This document shows positions 10,338-54,900 of a DNA stretch of 64,000 bases, one piece after another. The number at the start of each line of letters is the position of its first letter. Position 1 is the first letter of the stretch. The stretch is from Microbotryum violaceum. Its lineage: Eukaryota. Position numbers and translations under genes: made by a program. Location: contig CDLV01000006.1 in NCBI GenBank assembly GCA_001244265.2, positions 1,612,001 through 1,676,000 on the forward strand. The letters are read 5' to 3'. The notes beneath the pieces were generated by a model that searched no databases, had not been told where the DNA came from, and was given only the letters and a program-made list of their open reading frames with translations.

Positions 10338-13300
10338 CTACGAAAGGTCATCCTCATCGTCGTCCTCATCATCGGAAACCTGCATGAACGCGCTCCTCAT
10401 CCTCTGCTTATCCATCTTACGTTTCGAGCTCACATCCTCCAACAAGACGAGCAAATCCTCCTGCTCCTTATCCGCCTCTTCCTTCGCCGATTGAGCTTGC
10501 TCCAACTCCCTTCTCAAAGTAGACACTTCCTCCGCCAAGGCGTCGTCCGATCTTCCCGCTCTAATCGTATCGACGTCCAAAGGTGTCGCGTCCCTCAATT
10601 GATCCAATTCCGTACGCGTGGAAGCCAAGTGTTGTCGACTGGTCTCGAGTTGACTATTCGTCGATTCGAGTAACTTTTGCGTCCGTTCGAGTTCGGCGCG
10701 AAGGCGTTCGAGTTCCATCGGGTCGTGCGTCGGGGGAGGGGCGGGGGGATGCGAACCGAACGGCGAGTCGTTCGACGATATAGTTTGTGTAGAAGAGGAG
10801 TTGAAGAAATCGATACCGGACTGGAAGGACGAAGTCTCGTTCGCTCCTTGAGAAGTAGGCTGACCACCACCGAAAAGATCATCGACTGTCCTCGAATGTC
10901 GAGCTAGTTCTAGTTCGCTAAGCACACGTTGGTGTTCGCTATGCGCGGTATCGAGTTCGGTTCGCAATGTAGCGATCTCTTGTTCCAATATTTCGATTTT
11001 CTTCGATGCCTCGTGATCGACCACAGGGTCTAAAGGCGATGTTACTGCAGCTGCTGCGGGCAGCGATGGAGCGTAAGGGTCATCCCCCCGAGGCGCATAC
11101 GGATCATCCCCTCCTCGAGGTGTATAAGGATCATCACGGTTGTTGTTACTTCCTCCTCCGCCTCCTGTTCGAGCCGCGTTCACATCAGCATAAGCCTGTT
11201 CAAGCTCGGCTTGTAAACCCGAGATACGTGCGGTGAGACTTTCAATCTCATTTTGAAAAGCGATACGCTGTGAGTCGACTCTGAGATCAGCCCTCTCCCT
11301 ATCGTTCAAAAATGCGAGCCGCAAAAGCCAACAATCCAGAAGAAGAACTCACCTCTTCATCCCTCTCCGCTGCCAAACCCAAGATCTGATTCCTCATATC
11401 CTCCATCTGTTCGGTCTGCGTCGCGATCGACAACCTTAGAGCGGTGACGACCTCGTACGAATCGCCGTTCCCGTCCAATGATCGACGACTGGTCGTGTTC
11501 GCCGTTGGGTCCATCAGGATCGCTCGTTGGACCGAGACTGTTCAATATAGTCACAGCAGGCCGTGTCAGTTTGGAGTTCTTTTGAGAGAAGTGAGCGAGA
11601 AATGAACACGTACTGTAGTTGGTCTTCAAGAATTCAACGAACGAATAATCAAACCACAGTCCTTGTTCCTCCCCCAACTCTTCCTCCATCTCCTCATCAA
11701 TTAACTCCAACACCGCCGGTCCAACACTTCGGAACCTCTCGTCCTCCCTCAACCTCAAGATCCTCGAAACGAATTGATCGGCTCCAACACGAGAATGTAG
11801 GATCGGATGTAGGGTTTCACGAGTTATCGGTCCCGGTTCTCGGTTGTATTCGTAGCATATCCCGAGGAGAAAGGCACAGAGCCCTTGGACGACCGAATCG
11901 ACGCCCGAGGATTGGGTGATGGGTTGGATCAACTGTAAGACCCCATCAGCGATCGAGAGGGCGTTAGTCTTCTTCGAAACGAATTGTGGGCCTCCTGCGC
12001 TGTTGATTCAACTTTGCTACTCACGACTTGAAGATTGGAACCTTCGCTCAAAAACTCGGTAACGGTCGTCGGACTATCCCATAACCACAACGAAAGCACC
12101 ATCAAATAGCCCACCATGATTCGACTCCACTCCAAACCCCGATCAGGACCCAAGCCCGCATTGGCACTCTGGACTTGTTCCCTTTGCGCCATCATCAAAT
12201 TCCCGACCAAGATGGAGACCAAACTCGCTCGTTCTTCCTCGTCCCCATATCCCCCCGGTTCGGCATCATCACCGGTGAAATAAATCTTGCGAGCGAATTC
12301 TTTGGACGTTTCGGAGCCCATGATGAGGTGGGAGAAGAGGAGACAGGCGAAGAAGGGGACGTAGGAATCAAAGTGGTCTCGCGTGGCGGAAGGGAACGTT
12401 CGCATCGCGTGGAGGAGGATCGAGCCGGCGGATGGGATCTGAGGTCCAGAAGGATCGGTGTCGGGTGAGGGTGCGACCATGGTCGACAAGATGCCGAGTT
12501 GGGTTTCGGTCGAATTGGCAACGTAACTTTGGAACAAGTTCGCCGCTGCGGCTCGAACGCGTAGGCCTGATCGGCCGGGTGTACCGTCTCCGACCACGGC
12601 GAGTCGCACCACGGCGATCACAGCGGGCGCAGGCGTGCCCTTACGCCATTTGCTCCTGTTCGATCTTCGGTCCACCTCATCCTCATCCTCGTCGTCCGAT
12701 TGAGATCCACCACCACGTTGTTGAGCTTGTTCGCCGTCGTCGTAGTGCGGATTGTAGTGTTCAGCCGGCGGTAAAGCCATCGGTCGAATCAAAGGTACGA
12801 CGATGAGCGAGTTGAGCGCAGCTTGATTCGGTGGGGAGAGTCGCAAGATATCGGCGAGGGCGTTCATCGCCTGCGACTTGAGCATCGAAGGTGCATTACT
12901 CGCGAGCGCCATCTCGGCCAAACATCTCGACATGCCCGACGTCAGCAAAGCTTTTTGATTCGCTTCCCTTCCGGCACCGGCACCACCGACGAGCATGCGC
13001 ACGAGCGAGAGCACGAGCCCAGCGTTGACGACTTTTTGCTCCGACCATGATTGGAGCGCAAAAGCCGATAGCGAGGCCGGCGTTTGAGCCATGGGTAGAG
13101 GGAAGAGGAGGAGCGGGGCCAAGAGGGGGATGCAGGACGTTTCCCGAAAGTAGTTCTGTGCTTCAAAGTTTTGTCAGCACGTTGAAAATTCGCATCAGCG
13201 ATCTGCGGACGAAAACAATCGACGCACCTGATTGGACACGTTCCACCTCAGTAGTCCACCGATCGCGGCCAAGCAATCCTGTACGACGATTCCACCACTG

Positions 13301-16361: not shown

Positions 16362-17022
16362 CTGTTTGCCGTTCAATGACGAAAGGAAAAAGGGGTTCAA
16401 GTAATACAAGTGACGCAATCACGGTTGAGCTGCGGGATGCTACGACGTCTGATTTTGGTGAGAACCGAACCACCGTTGACGAGATCGAGGGCCGGAAACC
16501 CTTCAATCCCGAATCAGTCAGCACCCCAAACACCGCCCCCAATCCCGACTCATCCTCGGCACGCTCCACCCAAGCAACCCACATCTCATCATCGATGAAT
16601 GCCCCACCTCAACGCGCGATCAGCTTTTGTCCCGTCTCCGCCACTTTCAGCCCAAGAACAATCAGAGCTCATCAAAACCACAAACACCCTTTTGAAGGCC
16701 TCTTGCAAGGTTTCCAGAGGCGAGCAGGAGAGACATTGAAAGGATGGATGAAAGAGGGAGACGGAAGGAAAACCAACAGCGATGTGAGGGGAAGCGATCA
16801 TCGAGACAGACGCGATGCTCAGATGGAGTCGTTGGGAGAAGGCACAAAGAGGGAGAGTGCGTAGGGCAACATTAACCGGAAATAGGGGGGACGACTTGAT
16901 GCGATGATCGGAGGAAGGGTTCAAAGACGAAGAGCGGCGCTCTCCTGGACGAAGCGAAATGCGAACGATGAAAAGAAGATCGAAAGTCGAAAGCAGCGTC
17001 AGGTTGAATAGGAAGTCACGGG

Positions 17023-18449
17023 TCACGGGCGCTTAGTAAACGGCTGGTAGCTGGACCTCGTTCTGGTCGACGACGTAAGAGAACATGTCGTCCGACTGCG
17101 CCTGGCCAATGAAATCATCAAGGAGCGAACTCGGCGAGAGCGGATGAGCAGCGAGCTCGGTCGAGGTTGCATCATCCTCAACGGCGTTCGTGTTGAGCCA
17201 CGCGTCAAAGTCGACAAGATCGTTGCTGCCAGCAACTGAGGCGACGGGGTCGAGGCTCGCAGCCCAGTTGGTCCAGGCGCGGTTGAGGGTCGCGCCATCG
17301 ACGGCGAGGGGGGAAGACGCGGTCGAATCGAAATCGCCGACAAGATCTCGTGCAAGCTCGGATTCGGGTTGGCCTTGAGCTGAAGGCGACGCATGCGGTG
17401 CAACTGACGTGAGGCACGCTCGGTCGAGAGAGACGATTTCGACAACCTCCGCGGCAGGGAGGAAGCTTCTCGTGCGGAGAGGCTAAGGTTGTCTACTAAT
17501 GACTCATCTTTCGCGAGGTCCAATACGTCCATCGCATCGGTGGCGAGGCCATGATTGCTGCTGGCGGCCGGGTTCGAGACCGTTGACTCGACATGTGGCA
17601 GTTCGGGGAGGTTGTCCAGTGCGAGGGAAAATGGCAACCGGATCAATGACGGCGAGGGTAGTGTCGAGAGCAACGAGGGGGGCGATGTCGTCGGGAGAGA
17701 GGTAGGTGCGACAGGAGGTGCGTCCGAAGTGGACGATGAAGGCGAGGCGAGGAGGCCCTCGAGGCGCAGGAACTTGGCCTCGAGTGCGCCTAACCGACCC
17801 TTGAGGGCGGCACTTTGCCGCCGTTCGGTCTCGAGTTCAGTCTTGAGTGTTTCGTTCTCCTCGGCGAGGTGTTGCGAATCGGCTGGGGTGATGGATCGCC
17901 CGCGCGACGGACTCGAGGTGGCCGAACCTGACAGGGCCTGAGCGAGCTGGCGTTCGAGGTGCTCGATCTTGGACTCTAGACTCTCTTGATGTACGCGCTT
18001 CCGATCTCGGGATGCTTGAGCGGCAACTGAGGTAAATCAAAGGGAGCACTGGTCAGCACATGCGCTGACTACGTTTTCTGCAGCTAGTAATCGAGCTGAG
18101 ACAGGTGAGACAAGCGGGCTCGGGCAGGGACATGTTGCCCGGTCGTGGTGGCGGCGAACGGCGGCGGCGCGCGCGCGTGCAACGCACCGCCCGCCCATTG
18201 TCCCTGGCGCCAGAGACCGGTTCGGCCTTGCGTTCGCCCGTTGGCACGTAGGATGTGCATGAACTTACTCCTATTCCGCTCCATCCTCAGTTCCTTCTTG
18301 GCGATCTTATCACTGACTTTGGTACCCGTCGCTCGCTTCTTGGTCGGCGGTGTCGGTTCAGACGAGGACGAGGACGACTCGGACGAACCGACGGAACTGG
18401 CGCGTTTCCGGGACGAGCGCGTGGAGGCAGGGGAAGATGCGGGGGCCAT
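17023..18449 (-). CDS. HAC1: HAC1/HXL1/XBP1-type UPR bZIP transcription factor (unspliced stop at 17023, IRE1-spliced stop at 17033)
   Basis: ATG in ACCGCCATGG context. bZIP KKELRMERNR|IAAQASRDRKRVHQESLESKIEHLERQL spans spliceosomal intron 18027-18268. Downstream 20-nt IRE1-type intron and two alternative C-terminal frames. Confidence 0.88.
17446..17484 (-). other. Unconventional IRE1-cleaved intron (17455-17474, 20 nt) with flanking stem-loops
   Basis: Minus strand AGCCTCT-CCG|CACG-AGAAGCT and CCTCC-CTG|CCGC-GGAGG: two stems with 7-nt loops. The 3' loop matches CNG|CNG exactly, and excision restores a long acidic frame. Confidence 0.85.
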
Positions 18450-19272
18450 GGCGGTCGCTTGGTGCTGGGTGCTGGGAGTGGGTGCAACTACAGAGGATGA
18501 ATATGGAGGGTCGACCCTTTCAATCGGTGATGCGATAAGGTGTTGATGGGGATGAAAAGAGGTCGACCCTCTGCTGTAGTGCGTTGGCAGAGTGGTCGCA
18601 GGCGCCGAGTCGCGCAGAGAACGGTGTGGAATGAAAGAGAAAGCGCCAAAGGCCCGCGCTCGCCCGGGTCACTCACGATTCGGTCTCCCTTTTCGCGCCA
18701 AAGCCTCAATTACGACAGCTACATCGCTGTCACCGAATTTTGACACTGTGGCCCGGGAGCTTTCTTACCTAAACACTGTCTTTCGGTGTTCATTCTCAGC
18801 CAAACAACTTTGAGGGGCGTCAAGACTTGGAGGCGGCGGCGATCGCTCGGTCAGCACCGCCGGAGGCGGCGCAGGACCGGCACCGAGCCCCCACTGGCAA
18901 GAGCGGCACTGGGCAGCGCCAGCAGCCTGAGGCTCGGACGATCGAGTCATTGCTTGTGAGGCAGCATGTCGGACGTTTTCTCCGGAGTCAGATGGTCCGT
19001 GTATGTTATTTCTACAGCATGGCGACCTTGCAAGGACGTGAATGGTCACCTCCGACTACACCAGCGCGGCAGCTCGACCGCTGCGCGCTGCAGTGCAGTG
19101 GTCCAGCTCTTGACCTACTAGGAATCAGCGCCACCTGCAAATGCAATACTGAACGATAAATGCAAATAACAACAGGGGTGTCCTATTATTTTTTCCGTGA
19201 CTTTCAAGCGGCCCTGTGATCAGGACAAATATTCGCTTTTGAGCGCACTCTGAGCCCCGAGGCTGAACCACA

Positions 19273-22036
19273 TCAAGCGATGATCGCAAAGCCGGCGAGG
19301 CCACAAATGACGAGCACGATCACCGAGCTTTGTGCAGGTGTGATCTGCGTCGCAGTAGAGGCCTTTCCACCACCCTTCGTTCCTGACGATCCAGTGGTGT
19401 TGGTGGTTGATTCGGTCGTTGCCGGTACTCCGCCTCCGGTTGAATTCGTCAGGTTGGTGAGCGAGGGCGCAACCGTGCTGTTCCAGCAGTCTGAGCGAGT
19501 ATGAACAGAAACATCTGTCACCAGGCTTTACGTAGCACCAGACCCTCGTTGAGTGACTTACATCGCTCGAACTGAGTCGAGCAAGCAGACGATCGGGGTA
19601 AGCCAGCCCGTTGACGAGCTCGGTCGATCGTCGCGCACTTAAGGGCCAGGGGCCAGGTGGGGTCCACGGTCTGACCAGCGGTGACGTTTTGGAAGCCCTT
19701 GAGCGCGTTCGACTTGCTCGCGTCGAGGAATTTGACAGTGTCTTTTAGGTTGTAATTCAAAGTGAGGGTCGATGTGTTGGTCTGATAGCCCGTGTAACCT
19801 TGCGTGTTGTTCGGGACGGGCGAGTTGGGGAGGTAGACTGTGTGTTTTGATTGTGTTGCCCATCAGTCACAAGCTTACTAGCTGCATTGAGTTCAGCGTA
19901 AATTTGAAATATCTCTTCAACGTACTGACGATGGGGTATTCTCCTTGGCCCGTGACGGTGCCGCTCGCGACATCGCATCCAAAGAATGTCGGGCGGAGGT
20001 TCAGTCCTTGCTGGACGAAATCCATGGCGCCTCCTGGAATCGAGGGGAACGACGTGTAGTTCTCGCCGAACTGCTTTACGCGCTCCGCCGTGGCAAGAAG
20101 CGAGGTGCCGTTGGGCCAGCCGTAGGTCGTGTCGGCACTCGAATCGATCGCAACAATGACATCAACGGCACGAGCCTTCACCAGCAAGGGATAGAGGGGC
20201 ACGTTCTCACCCTGTAGTACCATCAATTGATCAGTCATTCTGGTCACATATAGTTACTCTTTTCGAGGCACAAGCTCACGTTCTCTCCACCGTCGGTGAG
20301 TTGTAGGATGCCATTGCTGGCCGACTCGAACGTAGTTGTGGAGGGGGTGAAGCCGAAGAACGAATTGGGCACGTTGGAGACGAGAGGCACCGAGAAGTTG
20401 GTCGGCTGGATATCAGCGAGATCATTGATCAACGTCGAAATGAGGGACGTGAACGTCGAAGACGAGAATTCGTTCTGGATCGCGTTGAAAAGGGCGGCCG
20501 AGGTACCAATTACGAACCCAGCATTGTCGTAATCGTTGACACAGGCCGAACCGTTGATGGGCAAGCTGTTGTTCAAAAAGGTGCCAAAGTACTCCATCGG
20601 GACACGCGCCGATAAGGTCGGATCAAAGGATCCGAACGAGTACGGCGAGAGCTCGAATTGAGTATTGCTCAAAGAGATGACCGTCGACGATTTACCCGAG
20701 GTCTGCTGCTCCTCCGAAACACGCGAGGTGGCCACTACGATGGGGTACGGCATCGCGCCATTCTGGAAGTTGGTCGTCAACTTGATGGATTGGAACAACA
20801 GGCCCTGGTCGTTGAGGGCAGTGGTGTTGAAGAACGAGTTGCGCGTTGTTCCTGTATGGCCAATAGGAGTTCAGCTTGGTGTGACCAGACATCTTGCATT
20901 GGTTGAAATTGCCCGACCATTGAAGAAGTGGAGGGAAAGCGCTCGGCCTGTAGCGACATCAAAAGTTAGTGCATGCTTAGATTGTTGCTCTTCGGTCATG
21001 TACGAACCCCAAATGTCCACGAGAGAGACGGGGAACCCCGCATTTGCCTTGGCACGAACGTCGTCGAGGATGACGTTATAGTAGTCCTTGTTCTCCCTGA
21101 TGCCGAGCAAGCCTCCAGGTGCAAGAATGTCGAGATCGAGTTTCCACCCCGGCGCTCCGTTGAGACCCAGGACCATGCTATAGAGATCGGTCGGTCCCAA
21201 GTCGTTCAGAGCAACGGAAGAGACGGCCCATGATCCTCCCGAGAGACCACTGAGGTACGAGGAGAGCTGCAGAAGAGGTCCGGCGTAGGTCGTGTTCCGA
21301 GCATCGAGACCAGCGAGGGTGCCGACACAGTACTGGCTTGCACGAAGTCCACCACCAGAGCATGCGAGGGAGCTATCAAAGTGGGGCAAGTCGAGTTTCC
21401 GGGCGTCAGCATGTCAGCCCTCGCGCTCGTGACTCCGCCCCCACCCGCGGCCGAGGTCGATCAAGGCCGAGCGCCCAGACGTCGATAGATCGACGGCGGA
21501 AGTGCAAGCGCCAAGGTCCAAGGATGTTTCATGAAACTCACACCTGCGGCACGGCATTGATTATGGCCGAAGTGTTGTAACCAGTATCATTGCCATCCCC
21601 GAGGTAGCTGGACCATGTCCCACGCAGCACATTGTTCCTCGTGCTCATGTACGCCGCCTCTCGCGGCTCGAGCGTTTGGTTATTTGAGAGCGGAGAACCG
21701 GTGCGGTTCAGTAGAGGCGTGGAAGGGCATGAGACGAGACGGGGGGCATCTGTAGATGGAAGGTAAGGCAGAAACCTGGCTTGAGCTGATCCCAGCTTCT
21801 TCTCGCACAAGAGAAGAGGCGAGTGCGATTTCCCACACGAGAAGAGGTGGGTGCGATCTCGCACATGAGAAGAGGTGGATGCAAACTCCCACACGAGCTC
21901 GTCGAGATCCGTTCGGTCGGCGTGCGACGCGCCGCGGATTGCCTCGAGGTCCTCATTCACTCCTGAACTCACATGAGACTGCCTGTGCCGTAACATACGT
22001 GCTGAAGGTGAGCACGAGGTAAGGAATCAACGTCAT
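19273..22036 (-). CDS. PLB1: Secreted, probably GPI-anchored lysophospholipase / phospholipase B
   Basis: Signal peptide MTLIPYLVLTFSTYVTAQA; SGGGLRAS, catalytic GLSGGSW, LTDGGEN, VDVIVAIDSSADT; Ser/Thr-rich tail and hydrophobic end VIVLVICGLAGFAIIA*. Confidence 0.92.
21801..21898. repeat. ~28-bp minisatellite, ~3.4 copies, in the first intron of PLB1
   Basis: Units CTC(G/C)CACA(A/C/T)GAGAAGAGG(C/T)G..TGC.A. repeated in tandem. Confidence 0.75.
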
Positions 22037-22918: not shown

Positions 22919-25928
<3,010 letters not shown>

Positions 25929-51952: not shown

Positions 51953-54900
51953 TTACGACAATCCTATGAGCGACATGACGACCCAAAGAAGATCCTCTAT
52001 CCTCGCTTTAACCTCTGACTGCATCCGCTGCACAAGGGTGACAAGCGCTGTACCAATGGTTGGAGCTGGGGATAGGTTAATGTTTGAAAAGGGCCGGGGA
52101 ATAGGGGTCTCATCGGAGAGAGGGCTGGGACTCGGCGGAGAGGGAATGTCCTCCACTTCTATCGGAGCAGGTGTGTGTGCTGGCGCCGAGGGTGCCGCTG
52201 TCGGAGATACAACGGGAGCAGCATCGAGGGTGAGGATCGGTAAGACCTCGGTGTGGACGCCCGCAGACGACAGAGGTACTGCGGGGAATGAAGACGGCGC
52301 CGAGGACTTCGACTGCGTGGCCAGCTCATACATTGAAGCGAATGACTCGAGGCGGGCGATGGAGCCCAACAGAATCGAAGCGAGCATAGCCAGAAGTGGC
52401 CAAGTCCATGGACGGGACGTGTTCCTGAGGTTCTTTTGTGGTACAACTTGGTTGTCGAGTTCGAGGGCCGGGATCGGAGAAAGTGGCGGCGTCCCCACCG
52501 CAGACGCGGGTGAGCCGAGCGCTTGCAAAGCTAGAGGTGATGGCGAGCGTAGGATGGTCGGCGAGGACACAAAACCGACGCTCGTGCTTGGTGATGCGGG
52601 CGGTGTGGCGACCTTGGCCTCGAGGTGGACGGAAAGTTTGGACATGTCCCGTGGAGCGATTTGGAATTTTGAGAACGTTGTCGGCTTGCCTTCGACTACA
52701 GGCGTGGCCGAGTCAAAAGTCTGCCCGTCCATTTTCAGATCGTACCCTGTAACACAACAATGTCTGGGCTCCTTGACCTTTTTCTCGGCGTGGGTCACAT
52801 CGCATGAATCGTTGATTCACCTGCGACAGGAACGACTTCAACCTCCATGCTGGCAACTTTGACATTGAAAGCGGGCAAGATGTCACCAATCTCGACACTA
52901 TCGCCTTCCTGCACCATTTCAACCTTGTACAACATCTCCTTCATCCCCCCCTGGCGTTGACGTGCCTCTCTCGGCGACTCGCGCACCGTCATCCGATTAT
53001 TCGACACTTCCCCTTCGACGAAGACCTTCCCCTCCCTCGTTTCCGTTTCCACCTCGGTCGAAAGACCGCGAGCATCCCACGTGTCGCACACTTCGACTTT
53101 CTGATCACTCCCGCCTCGAAGGGGAAGCTCGAGTGATCCGACTGGCCTGGCGAGTGTGAGATGACTGAACAGCCGCCACGGCTGATAGAGTGCTAAAGGC
53201 GGCACGGGCGTGATTCTCAGCTTGACGAGACCCAAATTTGAAGCCGCGAGCCCCACGAGGGAGGAAGAAGACATGCGGTGCCCCAAAGTGAGCGAAGGTT
53301 GTGAGGCCTGCGATCGAAGGGACTGCGTCGAGGTCGTGCGACGAAGCAATGGCGGTAAAGCTCGCTTGCGCGCAGACCCTCTTCGAGCTCGGGCCAGGGA
53401 AGGAGATGCCTCGTCCTCGGCGGCGGAGCCATCGGGAGAAGAGTCCATGTCGTCGAGGTCGATCCGAATCTTGGCCGGAGAGGGTTGAGCCACCGGACGA
53501 GTGACGATCTCGATCTCGACCAGCTCGTGCTGCTCTAGCGCATCCTCGTCCGAAGCGTGTCGTTCCGTTCTCCAGCGAGCTTTACCCCCTGCGGCGGGCA
53601 AGGGCGAGTCGAACTGGGATCGCTCGAAATCGCCGTCGAGCATTGAGTTCGAGGCTAGCATCTCGACGCTTCGACCATCGCCGGCTGAAACCGAAACGAC
53701 GGCATCTTCTTGCGCAGCAGCGGCGATTGAAAAGTTGGGCAGGACGAGGCGTAGTGAGCCAACCGAGTTGGAAGAAGGGCTGGACTCTGCAACCTCCGTC
53801 GAAGATCGCAGTGGGCCCGATGCGAAGTCGAGGGCCATTTCAAACGCAAACGCAGGATTTGGCATGGCTTCGGGCGTCAAAAGGGTGTTGAGATCTAGTT
53901 GGACGCGAACGATGGTTTGCTGTACAGTGCTAGGCTCATCGTCACTGTCGCTATCGGCTTCTCTGATCTCCTCGCCGGGCTCGGGCTCCGGCTCGGACGA
54001 GCTAGTCAACCACGAGTCGATCAAAGCGGCCCTTTGGGGTGTGACGAAGCCCGCAATCTCCATCTGTATTGCCTCGGATACGAGACGCTCATTTTCGGAA
54101 GTGTCCTCGAGCGAGTCGTCAATAGAATCATCCGCCTGCGAAGGAAACGGCGCCACCTGCCGCAGAAGACTCGGCTCCTTCAGCTTGGCTTGCACGCGCT
54201 CGGGATCGATGCGTGCGGCCAGGCCAGGGTTGATCTCGGGTGCTTCGGGCGCAGTCGTGTCGAATAGCGAGGTGTAGGAGAGAGGGCGACTTTCAGCGAT
54301 ACCAATGGCGCGAGGTCGAGCCTGCGTGGTCGGGGTCGCATGCGCCATCGACTGCACCGCTAGGGGAGTTTTACATGGCTGACGTTTGGTGCGAGTCCGT
54401 GTCATCGTGCTCGGAGATGCCGCGACGTCCCATTTGAGCACGCCTGCACCCCTAACTTCTGCCACTTGTACGACATCCCTCTGGTCCACATTTTCACGAG
54501 CGAGATGCGAAATGAAGATTTCAATCCATCGTTTGCCCTTAAGCCCCGCATAGTCAAAGTCGCCCGTGCACGCGAGCATGGCTCGACCGGTGCCCGTCGG
54601 CCCAATGTTCCATCTCACATCGAAGTGCGAATGTGGGATGATGAAATCGGCTGGAGGCCAGTCAAGCCGGATCCCAAGACAGCACGACAGAGGACGTCGA
54701 CTTGAACGATGCGGTGAACGAGGTCGTGGGCAAGGACGTGACGGTGGAAAGTTTGCTCGAGAGGTTCCGCAGATCCGGCTTCATCGAGAGACCCCACTGG
54801 CCCTCAGTAGACGCGGACAAAGAAGTCGAAGCTATCGACGACGGCGAGGGTAGCTCGAATGTCAAGAGAGTGCGTAGACACGCCGGTCGGGGATCACGAC

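Follow-up and report, generated by a model that had tools for sequence, protein, structure and literature searches.

Does the bZIP gene on the minus strand of this locus encode one protein or two? Two small hairpins downstream of its bZIP region bracket 20 nt whose removal would replace the C-terminal tail with one read in another frame, and the question is whether these 20 nt are an intron of the kind that Ire1 removes from the mRNAs of unfolded protein response (UPR) regulators. We analyzed the locus within its whole 64,000-nt stretch of contig, referred to here as the window. We estimate a probability of roughly 0.85 that the gene is an Ire1-spliced switch of the HAC1/HXL1/cib1 type.

A protein query with exon 2 identified the gene as MVLG_04215 of Microbotryum lychnidis-dioicae (P0001; 100% identity, 394 aa), for which the public annotation gives the unspliced 394-aa protein only. 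RNA contigs establish a gene model of two exons joined across a conventional intron (Table 1); the original prediction had included neither this intron nor the outer exon-exon stem described below. Exon 2 alone matched Pfam bZIP_1 with an E value of 1e-4, under the curated cut-off, and the precomputed domains of P0001 are bZIP_1 and bZIP_2. AlphaFold2 modeled both the bZIP helix and a second coiled-coil helix with pLDDT values of about 90 to 96 in their cores. A 15-residue Ser/Pro-rich break (17934-17886) separates the zipper helix from this second coiled coil of 47 residues, which is conserved to the same degree as the first in two distant relatives, L001 and P0004.

The exon 2 query also recovered orthologues from M. 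saponariae (92%) and M. intermedium (81%), together with the distant protein P0004, and M. silenes-dioicae has a further annotated protein, P0006. The public model of P0006 retains 27 codons of the first intron in the bZIP basic region (window positions 18268-18188), which looks like a wrong donor choice. A protein search with the bZIP region returned three Microbotryum proteins only, and HXL1 and cib1 proteins were absent from the matches of both searches. Matches in the PDB were generic bZIPs with E values above 0.1, and the prokaryote and viral collections held no relative of the gene. Its neighbors are a Uso1/p115 vesicle tether exon, a lysophospholipase exon, and a long ORF (11929-13173, 20244-20870, and 23425-25281); a weak zf-RVT match in the long ORF suggests a retroelement.

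Table 1. Features of the candidate switch gene, in window positions.
Feature	Positions	Strand	Remarks
Exon 1	18269..18449	-	ATG at 18449; Ser-rich N-terminus, basic clusters, first part of bZIP basic region; product = P0001
Spliceosomal GT-AG intron, 242 nt, within basic region	18027..18268	-	Skipped in RNA contigs, 4/4 runs
bZIP (predicted helix aa 43-92) and second coiled coil (aa 108-154)	17746..18323	-	Pfam, AlphaFold2
Outer exon-exon stem, 5' arm GACAACC	17487..17493	-	In window minimum-energy fold
5' hairpin, 7-nt loop CCG^CACG (^, inferred cut)	17464..17484	-	One C.A mismatch in stem; inferred cut between 17475/17474
Candidate Ire1-type intron, 20 nt	17455..17474	-	Bracketed by inferred loop cuts; ends CA..TG
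3' hairpin, 7-nt loop CTG^CCGC	17446..17462	-	Inferred cut between 17455/17454; fits consensus
Outer exon-exon stem, 3' arm GGTTGTC	17441..17447	-	Bases overlap 3' hairpin, so both compete
Unspliced-frame basic tail, 149 aa, net charge +26	17023..17474	-	Stop 17025-17023
Spliced-frame acidic tail, 139 aa after junction, net charge -20	17033..17454	-	Stop 17035-17033
Unspliced-frame motif PSLHEILSAISI, residues 283-294	17326..17361	-	Conserved predicted helix, export-signal-like hydrophobic spacing
Spliced-frame motif D-x-A-T-x4-W-x2-W-x2-S-L	17252..17299	-	7/16 residues common to L001
Second spliced-frame patch N-D-L-x-D	17224-17210	-	Common to L001

The original prediction had placed two hairpins on the minus strand with cuts exactly 20 nt apart and no GT-AG ends between them. 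Their positions and cuts are as it described, and both equivalent one-base shifts of the 20 nt, with ends GC..CT and AC..GC, are likewise non-spliceosomal. Each hairpin forms when isolated (folding z scores of -1.85 for the 5' and -1.51 for the 3' hairpin), but a fold with both loops open has an energy of -11.0 to -11.8 kcal/mol, against -16.8 for the minimum, in which the 3' hairpin is lost. Competition for bases between the outer stem and the 3' hairpin puts the twin-loop fold these 5 to 6 kcal/mol above the minimum.

A twin-loop pattern, defined after the candidate site had been seen, matched twice in the 128 kb of the window's two strands, compared with a mean of 0.13 matches in 30 shuffles. 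We attribute the second match (52047-52028, minus strand) to chance; its loops, CAG^CGCT and CAG^CGGA, are also spaced 20 nt apart, near the end of ORF 51953-52816, but the twin loops are absent from its minimum-energy fold. That ORF encodes a hydrophobic C-terminus and has no Pfam family. Rfam gave four matches within 16500-18800, all far under the gathering score and none on the hairpins. By itself, the window sequence makes only a moderate case above chance.

Translation bore out the stops and peptides that had been quoted and the claim that both frames remain open for about 140 codons. The protein has 394 aa when unspliced and 384 aa after removal of 17474-17455, and the third reading frame of the tail region contains stops. 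Two of the 62 blocks (139 codons each) taken from within long ORFs had a given second frame open. The stop of the unspliced frame comes 10 nt past that of the spliced one, with an identical 10-nt offset in L001; such a late stop could protect the unspliced mRNA from decay. The acidic tail is likely an activation domain. Searches with it returned none among longer proteins, no usable ESM Atlas match, and no Pfam family; a bacterial repeat protein, P0005, matched with an E value of 2e-4 and was rejected as chance. The acidic isoform whose sequence is given by these coordinates is absent from all four annotated Microbotryum proteins seen (P0001, P0002, P0003, and P0006), each of which carries the basic unspliced tail, so annotation does miss it, as had been anticipated.

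No ATG precedes 17086 in the spliced-frame ORF, which has a stop upstream at 17485-17483; therefore, this ORF can be used only through a frame change. Ordinary alternative splicing could supply that change while the hairpins served something else, and the spliceosome does act elsewhere on this gene. We find this explanation scarcely credible, as there are no donor/acceptor pairs of 40 to 400 nt in the right phase within 17760-17300 for the donor patterns tried, no such joint appears in the RNA contigs, and a spliceosomal intron needs more than 20 nt.

Stronger evidence for an Ire1-type intron comes from a distant relative. A metagenome scan yielded two loci, L001 and L002, among 382 pattern matches. 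The L001 protein is about 35% identical to the window protein over the best segment, and a 144-nt GT-AG intron interrupts its gene at the same basic-region codon as the 242-nt intron of the window. Its candidate Ire1-type intron has 17 nt (L001 positions 1454-1470) between the loops ATG^CAAC (5') and CTG^CCGC (3'), the latter identical to the 3' loop in the window. An alignment of the two DNA sequences contains a single internal gap of 3 nt, located between the hairpins. Because the L001 intron is 3 nt shorter, its removal would shift the frame identically. Conservation of the hairpins and of the shifted frame in relatives had been proposed as a check, and both are kept in L001, in this 17-nt version.

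The RNA structure is conserved. Among 17 base pairs compared between the window and L001, 5 were changed on both sides, 1 was changed on one side, and 2 were unpaired in one species, with the double changes in the outer stem (3 of 7 pairs) and the 5' hairpin (2 of 7). Overall, 94% of the cells pair. Slid controls gave zero or one double change, and 16 of 500 shuffles scored as high, a comparison that rests on two sequences only and on helices that were first seen in the window and then delimited with the window and L001 both in view. The minimum-energy fold of L001 also lacks the 3' hairpin. In both species, the spliced flanking exons fold to one extended hairpin.

The protein sequences are conserved in the corresponding frames. 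Without its 17 nt, L001 encodes a 114-aa tail with a net charge of -20 in place of a 123-aa tail with a net charge of +22. The spliced tails of the window and L001 aligned with a score of 57, against 34 +/- 7 for shuffles, 1 of 500 of which scored as high; in the cross-frame tail comparisons, 132 and 62 of 500 shuffles scored as high, i.e., there was no resemblance. It is because of the comparison with L001 that the candidate intron rises above chance. P0004 probably carries the 17-nt form as well, because the number of codons across its site equals that of L001. L002, a more distant bZIP, has no hairpin pair and did not enter the count of changed pairs; the twin structure is thus present in one of the two metagenome loci. 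L002 may be another bZIP or may come from a lineage with a different switch. Its short bZIP ORF (L002 2489-2986) has a like basic region without an intron there.

Splicing of the 20 nt would leave a trace in RNA, and we examined the contigs of four runs (X1, X2, X7, and X10) of the 20 listed, which were recognized as RNA by their skipping of the 242-nt intron. The unspliced mRNA is expressed: contigs from X7 and X10 bridge the site unspliced, and a contig from X2 contains the 20 nt, 14 bases from its end. X1 has no coverage of the site. The predicted deletion of 17455-17474 was absent from the contigs of these four runs, which drop minor forms, come from unrecorded growth conditions, and can show the presence of the skip but not its absence. 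A minor X7 contig retains the first intron, at a depth of 34 compared with 548 for the spliced joint; thus, minor forms are not always lost from contigs. According to PMC3154848, 20 to 30% of Cryptococcus neoformans HXL1 is spliced without stress. The candidate frame-switching intron originally proposed is well supported by conservation; the contigs of the four RNA runs show no matching 20-nt skip.

That all covering contigs are unspliced is what would be expected if splicing had been lost or had become negligible in Microbotryum, leaving the 394-aa protein as the sole product and the hairpins and acidic frame as relics. A 5' loop that departs from the Ire1 consensus, a conserved motif belonging to the unspliced frame, and annotations that give the unspliced form only would also fit such a loss. 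We nevertheless consider it quite unlikely, for in a relic, compensated stems would not have persisted across the divergence from L001, and differences among close relatives also argue against it. Runs X7 and X10 come from diverged relatives. We had 40 of 153 tabulated differences, of which 4 (16996-17009, 3' untranslated) were dropped and 36 were classified by frame. These omit most differences found in X10 only; the X7 differences seem complete over 16996-17679, because all 10 substitutions and the deletion that distinguish P0002 from P0001 in the unspliced tail are present.

Among these 40 of 153 differences, none falls in 17437-17499 or in 17181-17322. The hairpin region thus has zero listed X7 differences, compared with about 5% in its flanks, and the 20 residues encoded over the hairpins are identical in P0002 and P0003. 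Insertions and deletions in the two-frame region of X7 and X10 total multiples of 3 (6 nt; 2+1 nt). Within 17180-17036, 6 of the 12 X7 changes are silent in the spliced frame only, 3 in the unspliced frame only, and 3 in neither. The distal tail of P0003 likewise leans toward changes that would be silent in the spliced frame, with 14 residue changes at what is the third position of spliced-frame codons and 6 at the first codon position; the corresponding counts for the single-frame part are 11 and 15, and the lean is a trend only (14 versus 6; P = 0.08).

The loops themselves were compared with the sequences that Ire1 is known to cut. In PMC8104961, Ire1 of Saccharomyces cerevisiae requires CNG^(C/A)NGN within a 7-nt loop, and PMC8071499 gives CNG^CNGN as the consensus of fungal HAC1 introns. 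The 3' loop matches the latter in both the window and L001. The 5' loop departs from it, lacking the G at +3 in the window and both the C at -3 and the G at +3 in L001. The variant 5' loop CCGCACG that had been pointed out is therefore real, and the loop is further off in L001 (ATG^CAAC). All that the two 5' loops have in common is G^CA, at positions 3 to 5 of the 7-nt loop. Of the alternative upstream consensus words, nine in the window and six in L001, none combined the right phase with a stem of two or more pairs.

A tolerant Ire1 would explain such a site. PMC8104961 describes cutting, in loops of variable size, at UG^C by Schizosaccharomyces pombe Ire1 and at G^C by S. cerevisiae Ire1 with K992D,Y1059R, and it reports a tolerant interface pattern in 175 of 230 Ire1 orthologues. 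The 5' loop of L001 resembles these substrates in its UG^C, and that of the window does so in its G^C. The S. pombe decay sites, however, end in decay and not in ligation, whereas here a strict site accompanies the loose one. Introns with such an off-consensus 5' loop will escape any search that demands CNG^CNGN for both loops.

It is also conceivable that Ire1 cuts the 3' loop alone, with decay of the mRNA as the outcome, and that translation enters the acidic frame seldom or in some other way, such as -1 ribosomal frameshifting. In both species the consensus is matched by the 3' loop alone, and a -1 slip would reach the same frame as removal of 20 nt. This seems very unlikely to us: the 5' stem covaries more clearly (2 of 7 pairs) and folds better in both species, and G^CA occupies the same place in the 7-nt loop. 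Moreover, 17482-17290 contains no slippery site of the form X-XXY-YYZ, and the only one in L001 (position 1607) lies well inside the acidic tail.

Taken with what is known of HAC1, XBP1, HXL1, and cib1, the Ire1-spliced switch would operate as follows. The 242-nt intron is spliced normally, and the cytoplasmic mRNA would keep the 20-nt intron in a three-way RNA junction, a structure that covariation supports. Without stress, this mRNA would be translated as the 394-aa form with the basic tail, the form seen in the RNA contigs. Upon ER stress, we infer from these four genes that Ire1 would cut both loops at G^C, that the flanking exons, held together by the outer stem, would be joined by tRNA ligase, and that the frame would move to the acidic tail, which would activate UPR genes. 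A 5' loop reduced to its G^CA core would point to a lineage whose Ire1 is of the tolerant type, and the unspliced form would act as a brake.

The proposal that this gene is the UPR master regulator of the fungus draws on the same analogy. The gene could be a true substrate of Ire1 and yet be a paralogue or second substrate instead of the main UPR regulator, for the ESM Atlas neighbors of this candidate orthologue, basidiomycete bZIP clusters of which one is named X-box-binding protein 1, score 0.80 to 0.82, in the range of leads. To our knowledge, each species has only one bZIP whose mRNA Ire1 splices with a frame shift, and we see very little chance that this gene is such an additional substrate. 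In C. neoformans, one of five candidate bZIPs is spliced, according to PMC3154848.

Known fungal introns of this class resemble the candidate in different respects. Those of hacA/hac1 in the filamentous ascomycetes Aspergillus, Trichoderma, and Verticillium have 20 nt, and that of Candida albicans HAC1 has 19 nt; the unspliced overlapping ORF of Aspergillus is conserved and thought to be functional (PMC13703316, PMC7580959, and PMC8071499). The window gene shares with the ascomycete genes a short intron downstream of the bZIP, twin stem-loops, a frame shift, and a long overlapping unspliced ORF, but their sites fit CNG^CNGN at both ends, whereas its 5' loop does not and its host is a basidiomycete. 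The 17 nt of L001 falls below the 19- to 29-nt range given in PMC3154848. Among basidiomycetes, the introns of C. neoformans HXL1 and Ustilago maydis cib1 have 56 and 65 nt, and a regulatory role has been proposed for unspliced cib1 (PMC3154848 and PMC8071499). HXL1 is an Ire1-spliced bZIP gene with one conventional and one unconventional intron, an arrangement proposed for the window gene as well; the window's candidate intron is about a third as long as those of HXL1 and cib1, its conventional intron lies inside the basic region, and its borders differ from the CAG found at both borders of HXL1 (PMC3154848).

The basic mechanism is well known and would not surprise a specialist; what differs here is the off-consensus 5' loop, and what is new is a conserved helix in the unspliced frame. 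A likely UPR switch can now be named for a model plant-castrating fungus; in the related smut U. maydis, the UPR pathway governs growth in the plant. Literature on Microbotryum, Pucciniomycotina, and Rhodotorula (Rhodotorula by title) yielded no such intron in a search that most subscription papers lay outside, and off-consensus 5' loops or Pucciniomycotina introns may already be in print.

The unspliced tail had been treated as a by-product, but a motif in it, PSLHEILSAISI, is under selection of its own. Compared with L001, 7 of the 12 residues of PSLHEILSAISI are common in the unspliced frame, whereas translation of this DNA in the spliced frame keeps 3 of 12 and shows radical changes. The top-ranking 12-residue windows in this comparison all overlap the motif (8/12 and 7/12, versus 21/79 in the distal tail), and between P0004 and L001 the region is identical at 12 of 12 residues. 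Changes in it by unspliced codon position 1, 2, and 3 number 7, 1, and 5, position 2 coinciding with spliced-frame wobble. All four X7 changes within 17364-17320 leave the unspliced-frame residues unchanged but replace spliced-frame ones. AlphaFold2 predicted a helix at residues 285 to 292, the best-scored block of the tail (pLDDT 68; model mean, 54).

The spacing of hydrophobic residues in PSLHEILSAISI resembles that of a nuclear export signal. The stricter pattern Lx(2,3)-[LIVFM]-x(2,3)-L-x-[LI], from PMC2063676, is missed by one residue, the third hydrophobic position being Ile (judged by eye). A broader pattern allowing any of LIVFM at these positions matched once per protein in 5 of 5 proteins, always at the motif. 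We take this broader form to describe export signals generally; matches to it are common by chance, and it is thus the conservation and not the match that constitutes the evidence. The motif would be equally compatible with a degron or a binding helix.

The closest parallel is animal XBP1, which also has two long overlapping frames. In PMC2063676, the unspliced product XBP1u has a tail of its own with a conserved leucine-rich export signal (residues 186-208) and removes the spliced form. The window motif lies about 40 residues past the junction, in a tail that, unlike that of XBP1u, is strongly basic and has Ile for Leu in the export pattern. No membrane-like hydrophobic stretch was found in the tail; the best 19-residue hydropathy of the protein, 1.18, is outside it. 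By analogy with XBP1u, the unspliced protein is probably not waste, and its conserved helix may export or destabilize the protein together with its dimer partner, a proposal to which we give somewhat less than even odds. A single 12-residue element makes the role of unspliced fungal Hac1 proteins directly testable.

A fuller account can be put forward tentatively, although we regard it on balance as rather doubtful: Microbotryum and its relatives would have a two-protein UPR gene with a strict 3' site, a 5' site reduced to G^CA, an intron of as few as 17 nt, and an XBP1u-like unspliced brake whose helix exports or destroys the active factor. If so, the gene would supply a fungal counterpart of the export signal in animal XBP1u, and its two loops would be a natural substrate pair for studying how one Ire1 reads two unlike sites.

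One further stretch of the two-frame region stood out among the close relatives. The 142 nt at 17181-17322 are without a listed X7 difference, compared with about 5% around them. This is longer than the peptide motifs need, and an RNA element may lie within it.
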